This document shows, in pieces, positions 10,985 to 41,529 of a stretch of 64,000 nucleotides of DNA. How positions within the stretch are numbered: the stretch's first letter is position 1; each line of letters opens with the position of its first letter. A model generated the notes under the pieces. The model saw only the letters and a program-made list of their open reading frames with translations. It was not told where the DNA came from and did not search any database. Made by a program: the position numbers and the translations under genes. Source of the stretch: Myxococcales bacterium (lineage in GTDB: Bacteria; Myxococcota; Myxococcia; Myxococcales; UBA5297); NCBI GenBank assembly GCA_031552145.1, contig JAVBMV010000007.1, positions 226,486 to 290,485 of the forward strand, read 5' to 3'.

Positions 10985-11094
10985 GACTCCAGAACCTCCC
11001 CGGCTCGACTCCAAATTTGCGCCATCCGGACTCCAGATCATCCCCGACTTGACTCCAAATCGTCCCCGGCCTAGCCTCCAAATCGTCCCTTTTC
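10985..11094 (+). repeat. Five tandem ~22-bp direct repeats (iteron-like) ending at the ATPase start codon
   Basis: Units start at 10985, 11007, 11029, 11051 and 11073/4: GACTCCAGAACCTCCCCGGCTC / GACTCCAAATTTGCGCCATCCG / GACTCCAGATCATCCCCGACTT / GACTCCAAATCGTCCCCGGCCT / (A)GCCTCCAAATCGTCCCTTTTCG. Consensus GACTCCARATC.TCCCCGG. Confidence 0.8.
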
Positions 11095-20801: not shown

Positions 20802-22487
20802 ATGTCAAAGAGCATCTCTCCATTCGCTGCCGGGCTTGGCCTGGCGATATTGGTCGGGCTTTCGGGCTGCTCCGACGGCGGAGATTCCTCATCCAAGAAG
20901 GTCTGTGCGTCGCCCAAGGTGATCGCGGCCGATGGGAAATGCGTGGCCGATGCCTGCGCCAGCAAGGGTGCCAACTGCCAGGAATGCCAGGTGCGGTCCG
21001 AGGGAAGCTACGTCTGCGGCAGTTGCCTGGATGGGTTCTCGGGCGCGCACTGCTTGGAGTGTGCCGCTGGCAAGGTGGTGGCGGCCGATGGCAAGTGCGT
21101 CGCCGACGCCTGCGCCAGCAAGGGCGCCAACTGCCGGGAATGCCAGGTGCAGTCCGAGGGCAGCTACGCCTGCGGCAGTTGCCTGGATGGGTTCTCGGGC
21201 GCGCACTGCCTGGAGTGTGCCACTGGCAAGGTGGTGGCGGTCGATGGCAAGTGCGTCGCCGACGCCTGCGCCAGCGCCCTGCATTGTGAGGGCTGCGAGG
21301 TGCTCTCTGCGGAAGCCTTTGGCTGCACCTCCTGCACGGACGGTTGGGAGGGAAGTGCGTGTATGAGCTGCCCCTCGCCCAAGGCGGAGCAGCCCAATGG
21401 CGACTGCGCACAAACGCACATTGTTTCCCCTCAAATGACGGGAAATGGCGCGCCCGGGTCGAGTATCGCCTGTGTGCCGAGCCCCGCCTATCACGGGGAT
21501 GAGGTCATCTGCACCGTGACCCTGGCCGCCACCGCGCGCGTGGTGGCGGTGGCGTGCGATCCCGTGAACAGCGGCTGCTCGGAGTGGACGGAAGGTAACG
21601 TGGTGGTGACGTTGCAGAACATTATCGAGGACACGACCCTCAGCGTCGAGATCGTCAGGCCGCTCACTCAGGCAGAGAAGGAGGGGGTGCGGTGGTCTTT
21701 TCCCCTTCCCCCGAACTCGGAGCGCTTCGAGCTGCGCGATTCGGACACGACCGTATATGACAAACGGACGGGTCTGAAATGGCAGCGCGAAGCGGCGGCC
21801 AACGCGATGGACCAGGCGAGCGCCGCCGCGCACTGCGAATCAAATGAACAATCGCTGCCTGGCGAGGGGTGGCGGCTGCCAATGTTGGCCGAGCTGGAGT
21901 CGATTATAGATGATTCGGTACACAACCCGGGCATCGACACGACCTTCTTCATCGCGACAGCCAACCCCTATTGGAGTTCTTCTTCCCACGCGAGCGTGAG
22001 CGGTAGGGCATGGATGGTCCATTTCTACAGCGGCAGCACGCACCATGAGCCCGCTACGGAGGAATACCGAGTGCGCTGTGTGCAAGCGACGTCGGCGGAA
22101 GAGGTCGCGATGGCGCCGTTCACCGCCTCTTCAGACGGGACGGTCTCGGACCCCGAGACAGGCTTGATCTGGCAGGGTGGCGAGAATGGTGATCTGATGA
22201 TCTGGGAGGACGCAGTGGCGTTTTGCGCCGGCACGGCGCACGCGCTCCCTGGTGCGGGCTGGCGTCTGCCGACCCGGGCGGAGCTGCTCTCGCTCAGGGA
22301 CATCACCCTATCCAACCCGGCGATGCGCACCGACGTGTTTGGCGGCGCCAAGGGCGAAGATTACTGGAGCTCCTCGCCGGGGGCCGCCAACCCCGCACAG
22401 GCTTGGTATGTCAACTTCAACAGCTCCGACACGAGCGTCAGCCCCAAGACGATGGAGTATCGGGTCCGCTGCGTGCGCCAGGAGTAA
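20802..22487 (+). CDS. Lipoprotein with three EGF/laminin-like Cys repeats and two DUF1566 (Lcl C-terminal-like) domains
   Basis: GGGAG is 6 nt upstream of ATG 20802. Lipobox LVGLSGCSDGG. 3 x KCVADACAS..C.EC.V...G.Y.CGSCLDGFSGAHCLEC. Two DUF1566-like units: LKWQRE...GWRLPMLAELESI...YWSSS...AWMVHFYSGS...YRVRCVQ and LIWQGG...GWRLPTRAELLSL...YWSSS...AWYVNFNSS...YRVRCVRQ. Confidence 0.85.
   Translation: MSKSISPFAAGLGLAILVGLSGCSDGGDSSSKKVCASPKVIAADGKCVADACASKGANCQECQVRSEGSYVCGSCLDGFSGAHCLECAAGKVVAADGKCVADACASKGANCRECQVQSEGSYACGSCLDGFSGAHCLECATGKVVAVDGKCVADACASALHCEGCEVLSAEAFGCTSCTDGWEGSACMSCPSPKAEQPNGDCAQTHIVSPQMTGNGAPGSSIACVPSPAYHGDEVICTVTLAATARVVAVACDPVNSGCSEWTEGNVVVTLQNIIEDTTLSVEIVRPLTQAEKEGVRWSFPLPPNSERFELRDSDTTVYDKRTGLKWQREAAANAMDQASAAAHCESNEQSLPGEGWRLPMLAELESIIDDSVHNPGIDTTFFIATANPYWSSSSHASVSGRAWMVHFYSGSTHHEPATEEYRVRCVQATSAEEVAMAPFTASSDGTVSDPETGLIWQGGENGDLMIWEDAVAFCAGTAHALPGAGWRLPTRAELLSLRDITLSNPAMRTDVFGGAKGEDYWSSSPGAANPAQAWYVNFNSSDTSVSPKTMEYRVRCVRQE
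20925..21236 (+). repeat. Two near-identical 156-bp (52-codon) tandem repeats inside the DUF1566 lipoprotein gene; a third, diverged unit follows from 21237
   Basis: GCGGCCGATGG starts units at 20925 and 21081; GCGGTCGATGG starts the third at 21237 (period exactly 156). Units 1 and 2 differ at only a few mostly synonymous positions by eye. Confidence 0.8.
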
Positions 22488-32054: not shown

Positions 32055-32083
32055 TTGTGTCAGTACTCTCGGGAGGCTAAGAT
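32055..32083 (+). promoter_or_regulatory. Putative sigma70-like promoter for the ATPase gene at 32120
   Basis: TTGTGT (32055-32060), 17-nt spacer, TAAGAT (32078-32083), in an AT-rich patch. Imperfect inverted repeat CTAAGAT...ATCTTGG overlaps the -10. GAGG lies 7 nt before ATG 32120. Confidence 0.35.
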
Positions 32084-32119
32084 GTTTTACGTTATCTTGG
32101 CTCTCTAAATGAGGCAACC

Positions 32120-33583
32120 ATGGCCAAAGACTGGGGTTTTTATGGCAGAAAGAGCGAGCTCGAGGCCATGGGCAAGATCTTGGAGCGCGGGCGCTGGTTT
32201 TTCCTGAAGATCACGGGGAGGCGGCGTATCGGCAAGAGCAGTCTCGTTCGACAGGTCATCGGATCAGGGAGGGGGCGCAAGGTCCTCTACATCCAGATCC
32301 CGGACTCCGATCCTTCGGGCGTGGTCAGCGCCGCCCGCGACTTCATGAAGACCTTCGGGATCGATTCGGGACTTCCCGGCGACCTCAGAAGCCTCGCGGC
32401 GCGCTTGGCCTCGCTCGTGGAGGAGGGGTGGGTGGTTGCGCTGGACGAGTTCCAGTACTTCCATCGAAAGGCGCTCTTCGAGTTCACGTCGCAGCTGCAG
32501 GTAGAGGTGGATCGGCTCTCCGAGAAGGCCGAGCGCGTGCGCGGCGGGATGATCGTGCTCGGCTCCGTGCACACCGAGATGGTCGCGCTCTTGGAGGAGC
32601 GAACGGCGCCGCTCTTCAACCGAATCACCGACGAGATCGAGCTGGGTCACCTCGATGTCGCGTCGCTGTTGGAGATGTTGCAGGTGCATGCAGATCTCGC
32701 TCCGCGCCGCCTGCTCTTCCTGTGGAATCTCTTCGAGGGCGTACCAAAATTCTACCGCGACTGCTTCGAGCGCGGCGTCCTCGGAGCAGAGAGGGAGGTG
32801 CTGCTGGAGCAGATGTTCTTCGGCAGCAGCAGCCCGCTGCGCGGCGAGGCCGACAACTGGTTCCTACGCGAGCTTCAAGGGCGATATGACTTCGCGCTCA
32901 AGTACATCGCGGCCCATCCAGGCTGCTCCAACGCCGATGTCGTCGCGCACACGGTGGCGGTGGAGCCCGAGAAGAAGCGGCTCATCGTTGGATACCTGAG
33001 GGCACTGGAGGAGCGGTTCGAGATGATCGAGCGCCTGCAGCCCATCTTCGCTCCGCCCAAGAGCAGGAACGGGCGCTTCTACATTCGAGACAACTTCTTG
33101 CGGACCTGGCTGGCTGCGCTCTCGGTCCCGGCGGCTTCGATCAACTTCAGGCCTGTAGCCGAGCTGGTGCGCCAAGCGAACGAACGACTCGCTGAGTCCG
33201 AGGGATATGGACTGGAGCGGCTGGCAGCGGTCCTCTACGAGGAGCGGAGCCGCAAGGGAGTTGGCGACTTTGGCGTCACGAAGATGGTGCGTGGCTGGTG
33301 GGATCGCGCTGGAACAGAGATCGATCTCGTCGCGGTGAACGAGCAGGAGCGGGTGATTCGTCTCGGTTCATGCAAGCGCACGCCGGAGCGGCTCGTCGCG
33401 TCGTTGAAGGCGTTCGACGGACACGTGGCGCGCTTCAGGGAGACGCGGCGCGAGCTCGGAGATTTCAAGTTGGAGAAGGTGGCGATTGCGCCGGAGCTTA
33501 CGCCTGAGCAGCGGCGCAAGATCGAGGAGCAGGGCTACCTGCCGCAGTCCCTCTCCGAACTGACGGCGCCGTTGAAGAACTAG
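32120..33583 (+). CDS. Arch_ATPase-type AAA+ ATPase with C-terminal DUF234-like PD-(D/E)xK domain
   Basis: Walker A GRRRIGKSSL; Walker B VVALDEFQ; C-terminal GTEIDLVAVNEQERVIRLGSCKRT. Confidence 0.8.
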   Translation: MAKDWGFYGRKSELEAMGKILERGRWFFLKITGRRRIGKSSLVRQVIGSGRGRKVLYIQIPDSDPSGVVSAARDFMKTFGIDSGLPGDLRSLAARLASLVEEGWVVALDEFQYFHRKALFEFTSQLQVEVDRLSEKAERVRGGMIVLGSVHTEMVALLEERTAPLFNRITDEIELGHLDVASLLEMLQVHADLAPRRLLFLWNLFEGVPKFYRDCFERGVLGAEREVLLEQMFFGSSSPLRGEADNWFLRELQGRYDFALKYIAAHPGCSNADVVAHTVAVEPEKKRLIVGYLRALEERFEMIERLQPIFAPPKSRNGRFYIRDNFLRTWLAALSVPAASINFRPVAELVRQANERLAESEGYGLERLAAVLYEERSRKGVGDFGVTKMVRGWWDRAGTEIDLVAVNEQERVIRLGSCKRTPERLVASLKAFDGHVARFRETRRELGDFKLEKVAIAPELTPEQRRKIEEQGYLPQSLSELTAPLKN

Positions 33584-35899: not shown

Positions 35900-36655
35900 A
35901 TGAGTGAGTCCCTGATCCGCCTGTGCGGCGTCGCCATCGGATATGGCCGCCCCTTGATGCGCCCCATCGATTTCGAGCTGAGGCGGGGCGAGTTCTGGGG
36001 GATGGTGGGCCCCAATGGCGCCGGCAAGACGACGCTGGCCAAGACCCTCCTAGGCCTCGTCCCGCCTCTCGCCGGCCGTGTGGAGCGGCGCGAGGGAGGC
36101 GTGAGGGCAAGCTATGCGCCGCAGCGCCATCGCCTGAACCCCAGCTATCCGCTTTCGGTCTTCGAGGTGGTGCTGATGGGGCGCACTGGAGCGCTGCCCC
36201 TGGGGCGGCGCCCCGGCGCCGCGGATCGGCGCCGCGCCGAGGAGGAGCTCGCGCGGCTCGGCATGGCGCCCCTCGGCGCCAAGCTCTATCGCGCGCTCTC
36301 CGGCGGCCAGCAGCAGCGCGTGCTGCTGGCGCGCGCCCTCGCCGCCGATCCCGACCTCTTGGTCCTGGACGAGCCGGCGGAGGGAATGGATCTCCTCGGC
36401 GCCAGCGACACCCTGCGCTACCTGAGGAGCGCGAATGGAAGCGGGCGCATGGCGGTGCTCATGATCAGCCATCACCTGGATGACGTCATCAGCGCCGTGG
36501 AGCGGCTCTGCTTCATCAACCAATATACGGACCTCTTCGAGGCGGGCCCGGCCGAGCAGATGGTGTCGCCGGAGAAGCTCTCCGCGCTCTATGGCAGGCC
36601 GGTCGAGACCCACACGTGCGCGGGCAGGCGCCATGTGCATGTGCGGGAGGAGTGA
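35900..36655 (+). CDS. Metal ABC transporter ATP-binding protein (ZnuC-like)
   Basis: Walker A GPNGAGKTTL; signature LSGGQQQRVLLARAL; Walker B LLVLDEP. Start taken at ATG 35900 (MSESLIRL). Confidence 0.9.
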   Translation: MSESLIRLCGVAIGYGRPLMRPIDFELRRGEFWGMVGPNGAGKTTLAKTLLGLVPPLAGRVERREGGVRASYAPQRHRLNPSYPLSVFEVVLMGRTGALPLGRRPGAADRRRAEEELARLGMAPLGAKLYRALSGGQQQRVLLARALAADPDLLVLDEPAEGMDLLGASDTLRYLRSANGSGRMAVLMISHHLDDVISAVERLCFINQYTDLFEAGPAEQMVSPEKLSALYGRPVETHTCAGRRHVHVREE

Positions 36656-36657
36656 CG

Positions 36658-37500
36658 ATGGAGAGCTTCGGCTTCTGGGAGAGCTGGTTCGCGTGGCGCG
36701 ACGCCATGCTCGTCTCGCTGCTCTGCGCCGCCGCGCTGGCCTATCTGGGCGTCTGGGTGGTGCTCAAGCGGGTGGTCTATGTGCCGCTGGCGCTGGCGCA
36801 GGTCTCGTCGGTGGGCGTCGTCCTGGCCTACCTGCTGGGATCGTGGCTTGGGATCCACCCACACGATGACACGGGGTGCGCCATCCTGATCGATCCGGCC
36901 TGGCTCTCGCTCCTGGTCGCGCTGGCCACGGCCTTCTGGTTCGCCCGCTCGCGCGAGGAGAGCGCGCTCGCCATCGTCGCCGCCTATCTGCTCTCGGGCG
37001 CGGCGGTGCTGATCCTGGGCAACTATGTGAAGCAGGAGCTACACGACGTCCAGTCGATCCTCTTCGGAAACGCGGTGCTCGTGGAGTCGATCCAGCTCCT
37101 CTACGTGGGCGCCGCGGCGGCGGTGGTGGCGCTGCTCCATGCGCTCTTTCTGCGCCGCTTCCTCTTCGTCTCCTTCGATCCCGACGCGGCGGGGGCGGCG
37201 GGTGTCGGCGCCTTCAGGATGGAGGTGCTGCTCTATGCCTCTTTCGCGCTGATGATCTCCATCGCCACCCGCGCCATCGGCGCCCTGCCCGCTTTTGGGC
37301 TCATGGTGCTGCCGGCCATGACGGCGCTGCGCTTCGCGCGCACGATGCGCGGCGCCTTTTCGCTCTCCGTGGGGCTGGGGCTCTTCGCGGCGGGCGTCGG
37401 CTACTACCTCTCGTTTCGCTTCGGCTTCCCCACGGGCGCCGCGATGGTGGCGCTCTCGGGGCTGCTCTACCTCTGTTCGCTCGCCGTCAGGGCGCGGTAG
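36658..37500 (+). CDS. Metal ABC transporter permease (ABC-3/ZnuB-like)
   Basis: Multi-pass hydrophobic protein. ATG 36658 lies 2 nt after the ATPase stop. Typical ABC-3 family length and topology. Confidence 0.85.
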   Translation: MESFGFWESWFAWRDAMLVSLLCAAALAYLGVWVVLKRVVYVPLALAQVSSVGVVLAYLLGSWLGIHPHDDTGCAILIDPAWLSLLVALATAFWFARSREESALAIVAAYLLSGAAVLILGNYVKQELHDVQSILFGNAVLVESIQLLYVGAAAAVVALLHALFLRRFLFVSFDPDAAGAAGVGAFRMEVLLYASFALMISIATRAIGALPAFGLMVLPAMTALRFARTMRGAFSLSVGLGLFAAGVGYYLSFRFGFPTGAAMVALSGLLYLCSLAVRAR

Positions 37501-37520
37501 GGAGGCTTGCATCGGGTGAA

Positions 37521-37568
37521 GTGGCAACTTTGCCACGTGGCAGAGTTGCCACGTGGCAAAGTTGCCAC
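37521..37568. promoter_or_regulatory. Three abutting 16-bp palindromes GTGGCA-N4-TGCCAC (operator-like array)
   Basis: GTGGCAACTTTGCCAC (37521-37536), GTGGCAGAGTTGCCAC (37537-37552), GTGGCAAAGTTGCCAC (37553-37568). They are perfectly contiguous and end 12 nt before ATG 37581. Possible overlapping promoter: TTGCCA (37546-37551), 17 nt, TAGTCT (37569-37574), which implies a leaderless mRNA. Confidence 0.75.
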
Positions 37569-37580
37569 TAGTCTTTCTCC

Positions 37581-39134
37581 ATGTTTCGCACGAGCACGCC
37601 CGTCACCGATCATTCCTTCTTCGACCGCGAGCAGGAGCTGGGCCAGCTGAGCCAGGCCGTGCAGCAGCTGCGCGAGGGCGCGCCGCAGTGGGTCGCCCTC
37701 TTGGGGAGCCGCAAGGTCGGAAAGACCAGCCTGTTGATGGAGTTGTCACGCAGGTGCCGCGATGAGGAGACGCGGTTCGTGATCCTCGACTCGTTCGAGG
37801 ACGGGGCGCTCTCACTAGGGCTCTTCAGACGGCTGGCGCTCAGGGTCGTCGACGCCTTCTTCGCCAGCGAGCTCGGTGTCTCCGTCGAGGCGCTCGCCGC
37901 GCGCCCTGCCGACTATCAGGCGGCGCTGATGGAGTCGAAGCAGCTGCCGCGCCTCTCCCGCGCGCTGAGGACGGATCTGTTGGGACTGGCCCAGATGAAG
38001 GCCGACGCGCGCCTGGTGGAGCTCTCGCTGGGACTCGCGGAGCGGCTGGCAAGCGAGCTGGAGAAGTGGTGCGTCATCGCCTGGGACGAGTTCCAAGAGC
38101 TGGCGCGGCTAAAGTCGGGCACCGAGCGGGAACTCCTGGCGGTGGCGCGCGCCATCTGGCAACGCCATCAGCGCACGGCCTATCTGATCAGCGGCTCGGA
38201 GCGCTCCATGATGCAGGAGCTGATCTCCTCGAAGGCCTCACCGTTCTTTCAGCATTTCTCGCCGATGGAGCTGGGGCCAATGCCCGAGGTCGAGGCGGTC
38301 CGGATGCTGGTGAAGAGCGCGCCCGTGGGGCGGGCCATCTCCGAGACGATCGCGCGGCGCGCCATCGCGCTCCTGGGGGGCCATCCGTTCTACCTCCAGC
38401 TCTTCGGCGAGACGCTCACCGCGCTGGAGCCACCCTACGACGAATCGTCGGTACAGCAAGCGATCGCGGAGCTGCTCTTCCAGCGCACCGGCCGGCTGGC
38501 GCTCTATTTTGCGAGGCAGCACGAGAGCGCTGTGGGGCGCGCGGCGACGCTCGCCGCGGTGCTCGACGCGCTGGCGGCGGGCCCCGCGCGCCTCTCCGAG
38601 ATCGCCTCCCGAATCGGAGCCTCCAGCGGCTCGACAGTTCGGTATCTCGACCGCCTGGGCGAGCTGGTTCTGCACCGCAGAGAGGAGGCCCTCTACGAGC
38701 TTGCCGATCCCGTCTTCGCGCTCTGGTTGCGCTGGCGTAGGCCCGGTGGCTCGGTCGTCCCGCTCACGCTGATGGGGAACGAGGCGGAACTCGAGGTGGC
38801 GCGCCAGCTCGCCCTGATGGGCTTCGAGCTGGTCTATCAATCTCGTGCCTCGCGAGGGGCCTTCGATCTCTTGGGGGTGCGCAACGGAGAGCAGCTCGCC
38901 ATTCAGGTCAAAAGAAGTGGGTTGCCGCTGCGTTTTTCGAAGCCCGAATGGCAGCGGCTCAAGGCCGACAGCGAGAGGCTGGGCTGGCCCTTCGTCGTGG
39001 CCGCCGTAAGCCCGGAAGGGGAGGGAGGAGTCTCTTTCCTCGCACCCAGCGGCGCACAGGTGCGGCGCGCAGTCACGCTCGGCGCCGCGGCGCGTATCGA
39101 GAATCTACTCGCATGGATGGAGGTGGGACCCTGA
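37581..39134 (+). CDS. Arch_ATPase-type AAA+ ATPase fused to a C-terminal Hjc/PD-(D/E)xK-like nuclease domain
   Basis: FFDREQELGQL...LLGSRKVGKTSLL (Walker A); VIAWDEFQ (Walker B). C-terminal EAELEVARQLALMGFELVYQSRASRGAFDLLGVRNGEQLAIQVKRS resembles the archaeal Holliday-junction-resolvase D...(E/Q)xK core. Confidence 0.75.
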   Translation: MFRTSTPVTDHSFFDREQELGQLSQAVQQLREGAPQWVALLGSRKVGKTSLLMELSRRCRDEETRFVILDSFEDGALSLGLFRRLALRVVDAFFASELGVSVEALAARPADYQAALMESKQLPRLSRALRTDLLGLAQMKADARLVELSLGLAERLASELEKWCVIAWDEFQELARLKSGTERELLAVARAIWQRHQRTAYLISGSERSMMQELISSKASPFFQHFSPMELGPMPEVEAVRMLVKSAPVGRAISETIARRAIALLGGHPFYLQLFGETLTALEPPYDESSVQQAIAELLFQRTGRLALYFARQHESAVGRAATLAAVLDALAAGPARLSEIASRIGASSGSTVRYLDRLGELVLHRREEALYELADPVFALWLRWRRPGGSVVPLTLMGNEAELEVARQLALMGFELVYQSRASRGAFDLLGVRNGEQLAIQVKRSGLPLRFSKPEWQRLKADSERLGWPFVVAAVSPEGEGGVSFLAPSGAQVRRAVTLGAAARIENLLAWMEVGP

Positions 39135-40104: not shown

Positions 40105-41277
40105 TCAGCACAACTCGCGAATCGAGCGCGCGCGGATCCTCGGGGCAAGCTCGAAGCTCTCGGCGCCAGCGTGGAGGACCTCAATGCGCTCTAGCTTCAG
40201 ATCGGCCTGGGCGTTGCGCATCGAGGGCGTGACCTTGGGGCTGTCCGTATATTTCACCTCGAACCCTAGTCGCTCTCCGCCGCGCACGATGAGCAGATCC
40301 AGCTCCGCGCCCGAGTGGGTTCGCCAAAAGAAGCACTCGTTGTCGCGCGCGCCCAAGTGCTGGGTAATCTGCTCGATGGCGAAGCCCTCGAAGGAGGCAC
40401 CCAGCTTGGGGTGACGCTCCAGCTCGCGCCTGTTGCCTATATCGAGCAGGGAGTGCAGGAGCCCGCTGTCGCGCAGGTAGAGCTTGGGCGACTTGACCAC
40501 CCGCTTTCTTAGATTTTCATGCCAAGGGCGCAGTTGGCGGACCATGAAGGTCTGCTCGAGCGCGTCGCAGTAGCCTCGTACGGTGTTGTCGTTGACGCTC
40601 ATGGAGCGCCCCAACTCGGACCAGTTGAGGAGCTGGCCATGCAGGTGCGCCAGCATGGTCCAGAAGCGCTCCAGTGACTTGGAGGCTATCCTCAGCCCAA
40701 GCTGCGCGAGGTCGCGCTCGAGGAAGGTGCGGATGAACTCGCGGCGCCACGATGCGCTCGTCGAGAGAGTGCGGGCGGTAAAGGAACGAGGAAAGCCTCC
40801 GCGAAGCCAGAGGTCGGCGAGGCGGTTGGGCCCTACCTCTCCGAGGTTGAAGCCCGACAGCTCGTGGTAGGCGATGCGGCCGGCGAGCGACTCGCTGCTC
40901 TGGTGCAGCAGATCGCCGCTGGCGCTGCCCAGGAGCAGGAAGCGTGCGCGCAGCGGACGGCGATCCACGAGCACGCGGAGGCTGGGGAAGAGCTCCGGGC
41001 GCCGCTGGATCTCGTCTATGACCACGAGCCCGCGCAGCCCCTCCAGGGCGAGCATGGGGTTCTCTAGCCGCGCCAAATCTCTCGGATCCTCGCAATCGAA
41101 CCAGGTGCCCTGCTTGCTGGCGGCGAAGAGCTCGCGCGCGAGGGTGGTCTTGCCCACTTGACGTGCCCCTAGGAGCGCGACGGCTGGGTGCTGTTTCAAG
41201 AGGCGCGCCACGAATAGGCGGTGTTTGTCTCTGTCGAGCATACCCTGAATATTCGCAGTCAGGCTCTGAATATTCAA
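40105..41277 (-). CDS. AAA+ ATPase with C-terminal DUF4143-type PD-(D/E)xK nuclease-like domain
   Basis: Walker A GARQVGKTTL; Walker B VVIDEIQ; C-terminal GAELDLLIVRGGERLGFEVKY. The track start at 41277 is TTG; ATG 41241 (MLDRDKHRLF) is an equally plausible start. Confidence 0.8.
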   Translation of the reverse strand: MNIQSLTANIQGMLDRDKHRLFVARLLKQHPAVALLGARQVGKTTLARELFAASKQGTWFDCEDPRDLARLENPMLALEGLRGLVVIDEIQRRPELFPSLRVLVDRRPLRARFLLLGSASGDLLHQSSESLAGRIAYHELSGFNLGEVGPNRLADLWLRGGFPRSFTARTLSTSASWRREFIRTFLERDLAQLGLRIASKSLERFWTMLAHLHGQLLNWSELGRSMSVNDNTVRGYCDALEQTFMVRQLRPWHENLRKRVVKSPKLYLRDSGLLHSLLDIGNRRELERHPKLGASFEGFAIEQITQHLGARDNECFFWRTHSGAELDLLIVRGGERLGFEVKYTDSPKVTPSMRNAQADLKLERIEVLHAGAESFELAPRIRARSIRELC

Positions 41278-41481
41278 GGTCAGAGATCGCGATTTTCACT
41301 CTGAAGTCTGCAGGTATGCACCGGAGATGGATGCAGGTCACTCCCTGCTGGTCAGGCCCTGCCTGCAGGGGCCGATGGAGCGGCGCCGGGCGCGGATCCT
41401 CGGGGCTAGCTCGAAGCTCGGCGCTTGCGTGGCTCTCTCTCCGCCCTGCCGGCTCGAAAGATGCCACTAGGAAAGAACTCG

Positions 41482-41529
41482 GGTGTGGCCCTAGGATGGC
41501 CGATCGTTTCCTCAACAGAGGTTGAACGC
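41482..41529 (+). repeat. Right copy of the 48-bp direct repeat; functions as the glnS 5' leader/RBS
   Basis: Identical to 40042-40089. GAGG lies 9 nt upstream of the glnS ATG at 41531. Confidence 0.85.

Follow-up and report, generated by a model that had tools for sequence, protein, structure and literature searches.

Results and Discussion

Architecture of the Array

The stretch of DNA analyzed here, 64,000 nucleotides of contig JAVBMV010000007.1 from a Myxococcales bacterium (referred to throughout as the window, with positions counted from its first letter), carries at 37521–37568 three 16-bp palindromic units of the form GTGGCA-N4-TGCCAC, which abut one another with zero spacer, as read from the sequence and verified by a recheck of the coordinates. 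The array lies directly upstream of a gene for a 517-residue protein that combines an AAA+ ATPase module, a winged helix, and a C-terminal domain with the fold of the archaeal resolvase Hjc, and it is the relationship between this array and this gene that concerns us here. Between the end of the array and the start codon of the gene (ATG 37581) lie 12 nt, TAGTCTTTCTCC, in which no Shine–Dalgarno sequence is present. The window sequence across the array reads aGTGGCAACTTTGCCAC GTGGCAGAGTTGCCAC GTGGCAAAGTTGCCACtagtctttctccATG, and its units are the following.

37521–37536: predicted operator unit 1, GTGGCAACTTTGCCAC, composed of two inverted 8-bp half-sites and starting at −60 relative to the start codon.
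37537–37552: predicted operator unit 2, GTGGCAGAGTTGCCAC, starting at −44, with the putative −35 hexamer in its right half.
37553–37568: predicted operator unit 3, GTGGCAAAGTTGCCAC, starting at −28 and occupying the promoter spacer up to the putative −10 hexamer.

With at most one mismatch, the motif GTGGCA-N4-TGCCAC occurs in the 64 kb only at these three sites, compared to a shuffle expectation of 0.14, and none of 100 shuffled sequences reaches three occurrences. With three mismatches, 25 sites are observed in the window against 37 expected; this count is not above chance, and the rest of the window thus lacks degenerate copies. Tandem Repeats Finder likewise reports a period-16 array of 3.0 copies. 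The preliminary description of this DNA had placed three abutting 16-bp palindromes at 37521–37568, 12 nt before an ATG and without a Shine–Dalgarno sequence, which our rereading confirms; it had also considered that the motif might be a common dispersed repeat, and our pattern search gives no sign of this, with three sites at one locus in the 64-kb window. For the same reason, the array does not qualify as a dispersed repeat of the repetitive extragenic palindrome (REP), bacterial interspersed mosaic element (BIME), or miniature inverted-repeat transposable element (MITE) type. An array of clustered regularly interspaced short palindromic repeats (CRISPR) is ruled out, as the units are only 16 bp long and abut without spacers, whereas CRISPR repeats span 23–50 bp and are separated by unique spacers.

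Units 1 and 3 are reverse complements of each other, and the 48 bp therefore form a perfect inverted repeat of 22–23 bp around a 4-nt center. The junctions between units also form dyads (TTGCCAC/GTGGCAA), such that the array could in principle be parsed in more than one way; the 6-N4-6 arrangement is nevertheless the natural register, because all arrays, in the window and in its relatives, open with nnnGCA and close with TGCnnn.

Conservation of the Array among Orthologues

We collected 80 orthologue loci (45–64% protein identity) from species-representative genomes, which together with the window give the 81 loci considered below (individual loci are designated by L numbers). Full-length homologues at 50–66% identity are numerous, and the named relatives belong to the Myxococcota; one of the loci, L057, is from Paraliomyxa miuraensis, which is available in culture. 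Tandem 16-bp palindromes are present in nearly all of the orthologue upstream regions (the 120 nt before the start codon). Counting perfect 6-N4-6 palindromes, we find 96 within the 100 bp before the start codons of the 81 loci, compared to ~4–5 per 100-bp bin elsewhere (3 kb on either side), which corresponds to a ~20-fold enrichment. Unit counts were obtained with a core-anchored parser, as a parser accepting any four of the six palindromic pairs caught GC-rich noise. In this way, 215 units were assigned in 74 loci, with 73 of the 81 loci carrying between two and six units: two in 28 loci, three in another 28, four in 13, and five to six in the remaining 4. The presence of the array upstream of orthologous genes, the absence of which had been put forward in the preliminary description as grounds for abandoning its proposal, is thus established for the large majority of loci.

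The unit starts are not scattered but cluster at −76, −60, and −44, and in a minority of loci, including the window, also at −28. Specifically, a unit starts at −60 (±1) in 42 loci, at −44 (±1) in 44 loci, and at −28 or −29 in 13 loci. A further bump in the palindrome counts, at about +1100, is due to a coding palindrome, CGGCACNGTGGTGCCG, which lies at +1110 to +1170 inside the gene in many orthologues, where it codes for PGGTVVP, an invariant peptide that links the winged helix to the Hjc-fold domain. It is absent from the window, where other codons are used for the same segment (38742–38762, residues 388–394), and is probably mere codon usage on a conserved peptide.

When metagenomes were scanned for three GGCA-N4-TGCC units, we obtained 37 stretches, of which 18 carry arrays of the window type that adjoin an orthologue, 3 carry solo arrays of this type, and ~12 are unrelated 16-bp tandem repeats. 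We note that four loci (L082:6950–6993, L088:2804–2847, L109:681–724, and L116:2401–2444) have three abutting TTGGCAG...CTGCCAA units beside TetR-family genes; these arrays end 1–19 nt before the gene start, apparently also in front of leaderless genes, and represent a convergent design with a different motif in an unrelated regulator family. In L083, the contig ends (1–240 and 4000–4245) are reverse-complementary with arrays at both edges, and this locus is probably a palindromic assembly artifact and uninformative.

Promoter Geometry

The putative promoter elements overlap the array as follows.

37546–37551, + strand: putative −35 hexamer TTGCCA, inside the right half-site of unit 2.
37569–37574, + strand: putative −10 hexamer TAGTCT (TAnnnT), 17 nt after the −35 hexamer and 6 nt before the ATG.
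37581–37583, + strand: ATG start codon and inferred transcription start of a leaderless mRNA, with an in-frame TAG upstream, a conserved N-terminus, and no Shine–Dalgarno sequence.

The 17-nt spacer between the two hexamers corresponds to unit 3 plus one base. The start codon itself can be fixed at ATG 37581, because an in-frame TAG lies four codons 5′ of it in the window and the N-terminus of the protein is conserved from residue 1. Among the 80 orthologue loci, 33 have a TAnnnT motif that starts at −12 and a further 10 have one that starts at −13, compared to 0–5 loci at any other offset, and the commonest base at −35 is T (52 of 80). As the −10 element ends 6–7 nt before the start codon, transcription should begin there, and a leaderless mRNA is expected; a purine-rich Shine–Dalgarno sequence is likewise not visible upstream of the 80 orthologue start codons, which include GTG in 27 loci and TTG in 3. 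A promoter scan of the window with an E. coli-type consensus gave no match, because TAGTCT fits TATAAT at only three of six positions. Our promoter call therefore rests on conservation across loci, and the conserved geometry (TTG at −35, TAnnnT at −12/−13) should be that of a leaderless σ70-type promoter.

These results agree with the preliminary description, in which a TTGCCA-17-TAGTCT promoter candidate inside the array had been proposed to yield a leaderless mRNA and to be covered by an operator: the phase-locking of −35 and −10 elements across orthologues lends support to the leaderless promoter, and the conservation of the same 16-bp design in phase with these elements is consistent with an operator laid over it.

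We also considered whether the TGGCA...TTGC strings in the array could themselves be σ54 promoters (−24 GG/−12 GC). The σ54 consensus is TGGCAC-N5-TTGC(A/T), which the strings superficially resemble, and Myxococcota are rich in σ54 activators, one of which adjoins the solo array at L085. However, the TGGCA and TTGC strings start 8 nt apart (or 24 nt, if the TTGC of the next unit is taken), compared to 11 nt in the consensus, and the GG is lost in many orthologues, where it is replaced by AG, TA, TT, CG, GT, or GA while the palindrome is kept. We have therefore rejected σ54 promoters as an explanation, the probability of which we consider negligible.

Domain Structure of the Protein

The gene downstream of the array and the segments of its product that are relevant to this work are listed below.

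37581–39134, + strand: gene for the 517-residue AAA+ (ATPase_2/MNS-type)/winged-helix/Hjc-fold protein, the inferred autoregulator, assigned from Pfam, an AlphaFold (AF2) model, and structural matches.
37704–37730 and 38085–38090, + strand: Walker A motif GSRKVGKTS and Walker B residues DE, respectively, both invariant.
38544–38702, + strand: winged-helix domain, residues 322–374 (AF2 helices 322–332, 338–345, and 349–362; wing strands 363–366 and 371–374).
38622–38666, + strand: recognition helix region SSGSTVRYLDRLGEL, residues 348–362, including the predicted specificity residue R354 (codon 38640–38642).
38775–39131, + strand: C-terminal Hjc-fold (PD-(D/E)xK) domain with E403, D429, and Q442-V-K444.

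The protein belongs to Pfam family ATPase_2 (PF01637), with a score of 40.6 bits relative to a cutoff of 33.2 and with invariant GxxxxGKT and DE motifs. AAA_16 is also matched, as is, weakly, the helix-turn-helix family HTH_IclR at residues 325–359, for which an E-value of 1.2e-5 is obtained with the isolated winged-helix segment. NCBIfam gave no match for the protein. The AF2 model of the 517-residue protein has a predicted local distance difference test score (pLDDT) of 93.6, and its closest structures are the archaeal ATPases PABY2304 (2qen) and SSO1545 (2fna), followed by Orc1/Cdc6 initiators, including DNA complexes, and then by STAND proteins (CED-4, plant NLRs, and Avs3/4). As the modeled recognition helix spans residues 349–362, S348, S351, and R354 are located at its N-terminal end.

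The assignment of the C-terminal domain required a fold search, as PDB sequence searches with this domain reach Hjc at an E-value of only ~1, and the Pfam score for Hjc (PF01870) is 13.5 bits, below the threshold of 21.1 bits. When residues 392–517 are modeled separately (pLDDT 88.6), the top 27 Foldseek matches are all archaeal Hjc or Hje, with template modeling (TM) scores of 0.64–0.71 and root-mean-square deviations of ~2.7 Å. Profile alignment to Pyrococcus furiosus Hjc (1gef) places E9, D33, E46, and K48 of the latter opposite E403, D429, Q442, and K444, and thus the full catalytic tetrad of Hjc is not present, with Q442 invariant in 117 sequences. Nuclease activity of this E-D-Q-K domain is uncertain, because the catalytic Glu of Hjc is invariantly Gln, but it is conceivable, as Mrr-type enzymes use a D-(Q/E)-x-K motif.

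The models for PDC-S27, a defense candidate family discussed below, match the protein only partially (E-value 1e-11, residues 152–361, no DUF234). It is therefore not a PDC-S27 member but a distant relative, and its role may be defense-like. The family to which the protein belongs, a large sister family of these defense candidates, has hundreds of members, mostly from Myxococcota.

Covariation between Half-Site and Residue 354

The consensus of the units is S-T-N-G-C-A-R-N-N-T-T-G-C-N-A-S, of which the core nnnnCA(R)nnTTGnnnn is constant across loci. The mirror pairs from 2/15 to 6/11 are complementary in 84–99% of units, compared to 53% for pair 7/10 and 20% for pair 8/9. Positions 3–4 and their mirrors 13–14 vary by locus yet stay palindromic, which gives rise to half-site classes GGCA, AGCA, TACA, TTCA, TGCA, CGCA, GTCA, and GACA. 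These variable positions are 10 bp apart in the unit, and one helical turn between recognition positions is the classic spacing of helix-turn-helix dimers.

When the columns of the 81 aligned proteins are ranked by entropy-normalized mutual information with the half-site class, the top columns are R354, S351, and S348, and none of 20,000 label permutations matches the observed mutual information. The correspondence at residue 354 is as follows.

Half-site GGCA: Arg or Lys, in 35 of 35 loci.
Half-site TACA or TTCA: Asn, in 6 of 6 loci (also in L043, with GTTTCA/GTTCCA units).
Half-site GTCA: His.
Half-site GACA: Gln.
Half-site AGCA: Gly in 13 loci, Arg in 9, and others in 4.

To what extent such a pattern goes beyond common descent can be judged from a tree calculated without the winged helix. 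In this tree, Asn together with T-type sites appears in four separate lineages, His with GTCA is nested in the Arg/GGCA clade, and Gln with GACA branches as the sister of Arg/GGCA loci. Of the 517 columns, only 354 changes in all six independent lineages, and it does so to residues that never occur with G at half-site position 4; A330, which likewise lies in the winged helix, comes second with four of the six, and 413 columns change in none. In an independent set of metagenome orthologues, picked solely by adjoining GGCA arrays and aligned over the winged helix, Arg354 is found in 14 of 14. Taken together, the independent lineages, the unique column, and the independent sample argue that the covariation would reflect more than shared ancestry.

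A switch of this kind can be seen by comparing L007 (His/GTCA) and L011 (Arg/GGCA), which are 86% identical and syntenic on both sides, such that protein and sites have switched together in place; the promoter-proximal half-site of L007 is still TTGCCA. For 9 of 10 pairs of paralogues from the same genome, the two members belong to different half-site classes, a result that is marginal relative to chance (P ~0.07).

The same data bear on the possibility that the array is a regulon operator bound by an unlinked, trans-acting regulator, of which the solo arrays at L085, L099, and L100 might be further targets and to which the superficially similar GGCA-N4-TGCC triplets of the TetR-family genes (L082, L088, L109, and L116) could lend some credence. 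A regulator of this kind is difficult to reconcile with the restriction of the motif to one locus in 64 kb, with an array that travels with the gene through unrelated contexts, and with covariation in six independent lineages with the recognition helix of the adjacent gene itself, and we therefore regard it as highly improbable.

Hairpin and Cruciform Alternatives

Palindromes can also act as RNA or DNA structures, and in the window the position of the array, downstream of an operon for metal transport, makes a role as a transcription terminator worth considering.

36616–37500, + strand: ABC-3 permease gene (context), with its stop codon 20 nt before the array.

This gene, which stops at 37500, is the last of an upstream operon with matches to ZnuA, ABC_tran, and ABC-3, and these matches bear out the earlier designation of the upstream neighbor as a metal ABC permease gene. 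One could thus propose that the array is mainly a terminator or insulator hairpin for the znuABC-like operon, with the palindromes serving the RNA hairpin: it begins 20 nt after the permease stop codon, it scores as terminator-like together with TAGTCTTTCT (3 such elements found, compared to 0.5 expected), and it folds as a 23-bp hairpin (−32.1 kcal mol–1 as DNA, z = −11). However, only 6 of the 81 loci have inverted repeats of at least 16 bp, and the genes upstream of the array are not the same from locus to locus. Furthermore, palindromy that is high at positions 2–6 and falls off at pairs 7/10 and 8/9, as given above, is the pattern of a duplex protein site, and a model based on RNA structure alone cannot accommodate covariation with a protein residue. 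We consider such a main function quite unlikely; a terminator role in the window could at most be local and secondary.

The long inverted repeat with its 4-nt center, combined with the Hjc fold of the C-terminal domain, could also be taken to mean that the array is a cruciform substrate or loading site for this domain, as the preliminary description had offered as an alternative. This does not hold up as a general explanation, as the potential for cruciform formation is not conserved: the window is one of the 6 loci with a long inverted repeat, the median longest inverted repeat in the 81 loci is 7–8 bp, and adjacent units are direct copies in 63 cases and inverted in 28. In addition, specificity tracks the winged helix and not the Hjc domain, the catalytic Glu of which is replaced by Gln. 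We thus judge a cruciform role to be very unlikely, even more so than that of a terminator.

The Array as a Probable Autoregulatory Operator

Based on these comparisons, we consider it probable that the 48-bp array is an autoregulatory operator of the gene that follows, read by the winged helix of the gene's own product. The sites overlap the putative core promoter, with unit 2 holding the −35 hexamer and unit 3 filling the spacer, and the product carries, according to the models and profile matches, a predicted sequence-specific DNA-binding domain. Since residue 354 of its recognition helix covaries with half-site position 4, this product is itself the most likely regulator. The earlier statement that no regulator gene is adjacent needs to be revised in this light, as the downstream gene itself encodes a winged helix (residues 322–374) with such a covarying residue.

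We hypothesize that one dimer would bind each 16-bp unit, with its recognition helices one turn apart. Hjc enzymes are dimers, and dimerization may for this reason come from the Hjc-fold domain, with higher-order assembly and cooperativity being provided by the Orc1/MNS-type AAA+ module. As the units abut every 16 bp (1.5 turns), neighboring dimers would be located on opposite faces of the DNA. Once bound, the protein would occlude the −35 element, and in the window also the spacer, thereby repressing its own leaderless transcript, and a potentially dangerous ATPase-nuclease would in this way limit its own amount to a low level.

We note, however, a number of points that weigh against this interpretation. 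The code is incomplete, since AGCA sites pair with either Gly or Arg at residue 354, and both the pairs and the loci used are phylogenetically nested, such that raw counts overstate the number of independent observations. In eight loci (L010, L012, L015, L061, L067, L068, L074, and L078), the array lies 5–9 nt from the start codon and is thus in a different register. The −10 element is weak by the E. coli consensus, with the generic promoter scan being empty, and the GTG and TTG start codons (27 + 3 of 80) may be less favorable for leaderless translation. Furthermore, our preference for repression over activation derives only from the overlap with the −35 element and the spacer. Finally, an operator role alone leaves unexplained the arrays found 3′ of some genes, the solo arrays, and the homology that ends at array edges, which are considered in the following section.

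Arrays as Possible Ends of a Mobile Cassette

The features just mentioned would follow if the arrays were primarily the ends or attachment sites of a mobile or recombining [array-promoter-gene-(array)] cassette, with autoregulation as a by-product. In such a scheme, the winged helix would recognize the arrays, the AAA+ module would pair them, and the Hjc-fold domain would cut or resolve the junctions, and integration of a circle with the gene and a single array into a solo array would give a gene flanked by direct-repeat arrays. Autoregulation as a by-product would have a parallel in insertion sequences (IS) with a transposase promoter that lies inside the terminal repeat.

The distribution of the arrays provides the first part of the evidence for this scheme. 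A second array of the same class follows the stop codon in 16 of the 81 loci (L004, L005, L006, L008, L010, L012, L013, L014, L015, L020, L021, L022, L044, L067, L071, and L072), in most cases starting within ~20–50 nt (93 nt in L012). These 3′ arrays usually have two units, which are near-identical direct copies of the 5′ units. The genes that follow them are unrelated between loci, and no conserved promoter geometry was found before these genes at the 16 loci; we inspected the corresponding open reading frames individually, as gene calling based on GC content at third codon positions (GC3) is ambiguous at this GC content. In addition, solo arrays occur in intergenic metagenome DNA without an orthologue (L085:2260–2323, L099:1421–1500, and L100:1418–1465), of which that at L100 is of the window's GTGGCA type, and those at L085 and L100 lie between convergent genes. 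No credible gene remnants were found beside the solo arrays. Several paralogues with distinct specificities are also present per genome.

The second part comes from the boundaries of homology, which we compared in pairs with at least 70% protein identity among L001–L080, counting ends in nonsyntenic pairs. On the 5′ side, 93 of 112 ends of DNA homology fall within ±10 nt of the outer border of the 5′ array (median −2 nt). On the 3′ side, homology extends as far as the outer border of the 3′ array or, where there is no such array, to the stop codon. Synteny is lost even at ~90% protein identity (L021/L022, L056/L065, and L032/L034), with homologous upstream flanks in 5 of 10 pairs at ≥90% protein identity, 5 of 20 at 80–90%, and 1 of 58 at 70–80%. 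The neighbors of the gene in the window also do not recur beside orthologues, with the exception of one DUF4143 match. These observations suggest that [array-promoter-gene-(array)] relocates as a unit, which recombination between flanking arrays could delete or insert.

Several observations stand in the way of a primary role in mobility. No 3′ array is present at 65 of the 81 loci, including the window, and the product, in which the catalytic Hjc Glu is invariantly Gln, has no integrase, transposase, or DDE domain. We saw no target-site duplication, and viral contigs contain no relatives. A search with the flanks of the solo arrays yielded no pair of empty and occupied sites, the only matches being to paralogous σ54 activators. 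In more distant pairs, unconstrained DNA diverges anyway, which explains the boundary trivially, and the pairs compared are phylogenetically nested. Many loci come from metagenome-assembled genomes, such that binning or assembly errors inflate the variety of contexts. Strict phase-locking to the −35 and −10 elements is a prediction for an operator and not for the end of an element. We thus regard arrays that are primarily cassette ends as unlikely, although not to the degree of the structural alternatives above.

A combined role, in which the arrays serve both as operator and as recombination sites of a self-mobilizing single-gene cassette, appears to us similarly unlikely, if not slightly more so. 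In this scenario, a new kind of cassette, one polypeptide may join site recognition by the winged helix, through a simple and evolvable code from Arg/Asn/His/Gln to base, with ATP-driven pairing by the AAA+ module and junction processing by the Hjc-fold domain, and excision may leave solo arrays behind; by analogy with incompatible plasmids, coresident paralogues would keep distinct specificities to avoid cross-talk.

Genomic Context in the Window

Apart from the gene of interest (37581–39134, +), two further genes of the ATPase/PD-(D/E)xK type lie within 9 kb, at 32120–33583 (+) and 40105–41277 (−), and the three are interleaved with the znuABC-like operon and a family-2 glycosyltransferase gene. 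With the PADLOC models, the former matches PDC-S27 over its full length (E-value 1.7e-207) and the latter PDC-S01 (E-value 3.6e-89), and thus members of PDC-S27 and PDC-S01 are located 5 kb upstream and 1 kb downstream, respectively, of the gene studied here. This three-gene cluster may be defense-island-like.

The PDC-S27-type gene (ATPase_2 + DUF234) also has a palindrome in front of it, in this case a single one, CTAAGATGTTTTACGTTATCTTGG, at 32077–32100, ~20 nt before the start codon. A similar AAG(A/G)TA...TA(C/T)CTT palindrome is found in the same place, at ~560–600, in the PDC-S27 orthologues L118–L122, which are five loci but four distinct orthologues (L120 being the same as L121), with names that include Synechococcus, Planctomycetota, and Engelhardtia. 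Palindromes at the gene's own promoter may be general for this superfamily.

Other repeats in the window include a 156-bp tandem repeat at 20915–21275 (2.3 copies, 93% identity) that resembles a Cys-rich coding repeat, a 22–23-bp tandem repeat at 10985–11089 (GACTCCAAATCGTCCCCGACTA-like, ~4 copies), repeated TGCAGGT and CCTGCAGG strings at 41278–41520, 5′ of the minus-strand DUF4143 gene, and a 14-bp tandem repeat at 41332–41362, between the PDC-S01-type gene and the gene for glutaminyl-tRNA synthetase.

Significance and Comparison with Known Systems

Our search of the literature found no description of these arrays or of DNA binding by this family. While autoregulatory operators are already known, what is new is the use of an operator by an uncharacterized ATPase/winged-helix/resolvase-fold family, with a clear coevolving code and with cassettes bounded by arrays. 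The family thereby gains testable properties: by comparison across loci, its members are predicted to be sequence-specific DNA binders, the target of which would be a tandem dyad array on their own leaderless promoter, and the readable code between residue 354 and half-site base 4 predicts single-residue specificity swaps. Should this code prove correct, it would make available a naturally occurring collection of orthogonal repressor/operator pairs built on a new scaffold, and it would show how potentially toxic ATPase-nucleases are restrained. A new mechanism of mobility is a further possibility, raised by the occurrence of arrays at both gene ends, by homology boundaries as sharp as those of a cassette, and by the solo arrays.

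Among mobile elements, Tn7 has ends with multiple TnsB sites, and it combines these with TnsA (PD-(D/E)xK) and TnsC (AAA+), a structure of which (7rzy) is a distant fold match of our model. Similar to IS elements and Tn7, the conserved unit described here ends at arrays that overlap its own promoter, with arrays at both ends in some loci. In contrast to these elements, it has no DDE or recombinase domain, its arrays are direct and not inverted, there is mostly one array, and no target duplications were seen. With archaeal Hjc (PF01870; 1gef, 2wcw, and 1hh1), the protein shares a fold over its C-terminal 120 residues, with E, D, and K aligned; unlike Hjc, the domain is fused to an ATPase and a winged helix, its second acidic residue is Gln, and its sequence score is below threshold.

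PDC-S27 (ATPase_2 + DUF234) and PDC-S01 (AAA_14 + DUF4143) are single-gene ATPase/PD-(D/E)xK defense candidates that have not been validated (PMC12988326), and ATPase/PD-(D/E)xK candidates are among the most abundant uncharacterized genes of bacteria and archaea, with no mechanism shown (PMC12988326). The protein studied here resembles both in having an ATPase followed by a domain of PD-(D/E)xK fold, and the PDC-S27 orthologues also have a palindrome before their start codon. It differs from PDC-S27 in that its C-terminal domain is Hjc-like and not DUF234, and in having a tandem array in place of a single palindrome.

In terms of regulators that bind adjacent sites, MalT (a STAND protein) binds arrays of MalT boxes, and Fur and DtxR/IdeR polymerize on tandem or overlapping dyads. 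By analogy, the protein here could be an oligomerizing, NTP-dependent regulator, as is MalT, or a dimeric regulator binding on opposite faces of adjacent promoter sites, as are Fur and DtxR/IdeR. However, MalT activates other operons and has a LuxR-type helix-turn-helix, Fur and DtxR have no ATPase, and none of these is fused to a nuclease fold.

The dnaA promoter carries DnaA boxes, and archaeal orc1/cdc6 genes adjoin origin recognition box (ORB) repeats. As in these systems, a protein with an AAA+ module and a C-terminal (winged) helix appears, from the sequence comparisons, to have repeated sites at its own promoter, and the modeled ATPase and winged helix superpose on Orc1/Cdc6, with 2v1u and 2qby among the fold matches. 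The sites differ in being abutting 16-bp dyads and not spaced 9-mers or ORBs, and there is no evident AT-rich unwinding element, with no AT-rich stretch in 37300–37800 (GC 0.66–0.69); the location is chromosomal. The protein itself differs in having an extra Hjc-fold domain and several paralogues of different specificity, with nothing pointing to replication.

Finally, Orc1-2 of Saccharolobus/Sulfolobus islandicus is a noninitiator Orc1/Cdc6 protein that acts as a sequence-specific transcription regulator (PMC6061795, PMC9738581). It is a global regulator of many promoters and has no nuclease domain, whereas the protein described here seems dedicated to its own cassette. To our knowledge, no tandem palindromic array has been described on the promoter of Orc1-2 itself. 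Orc1-2 nevertheless provides a precedent for what we propose, in that it is an Orc1-type AAA+/winged-helix transcription factor that reads a short promoter motif.

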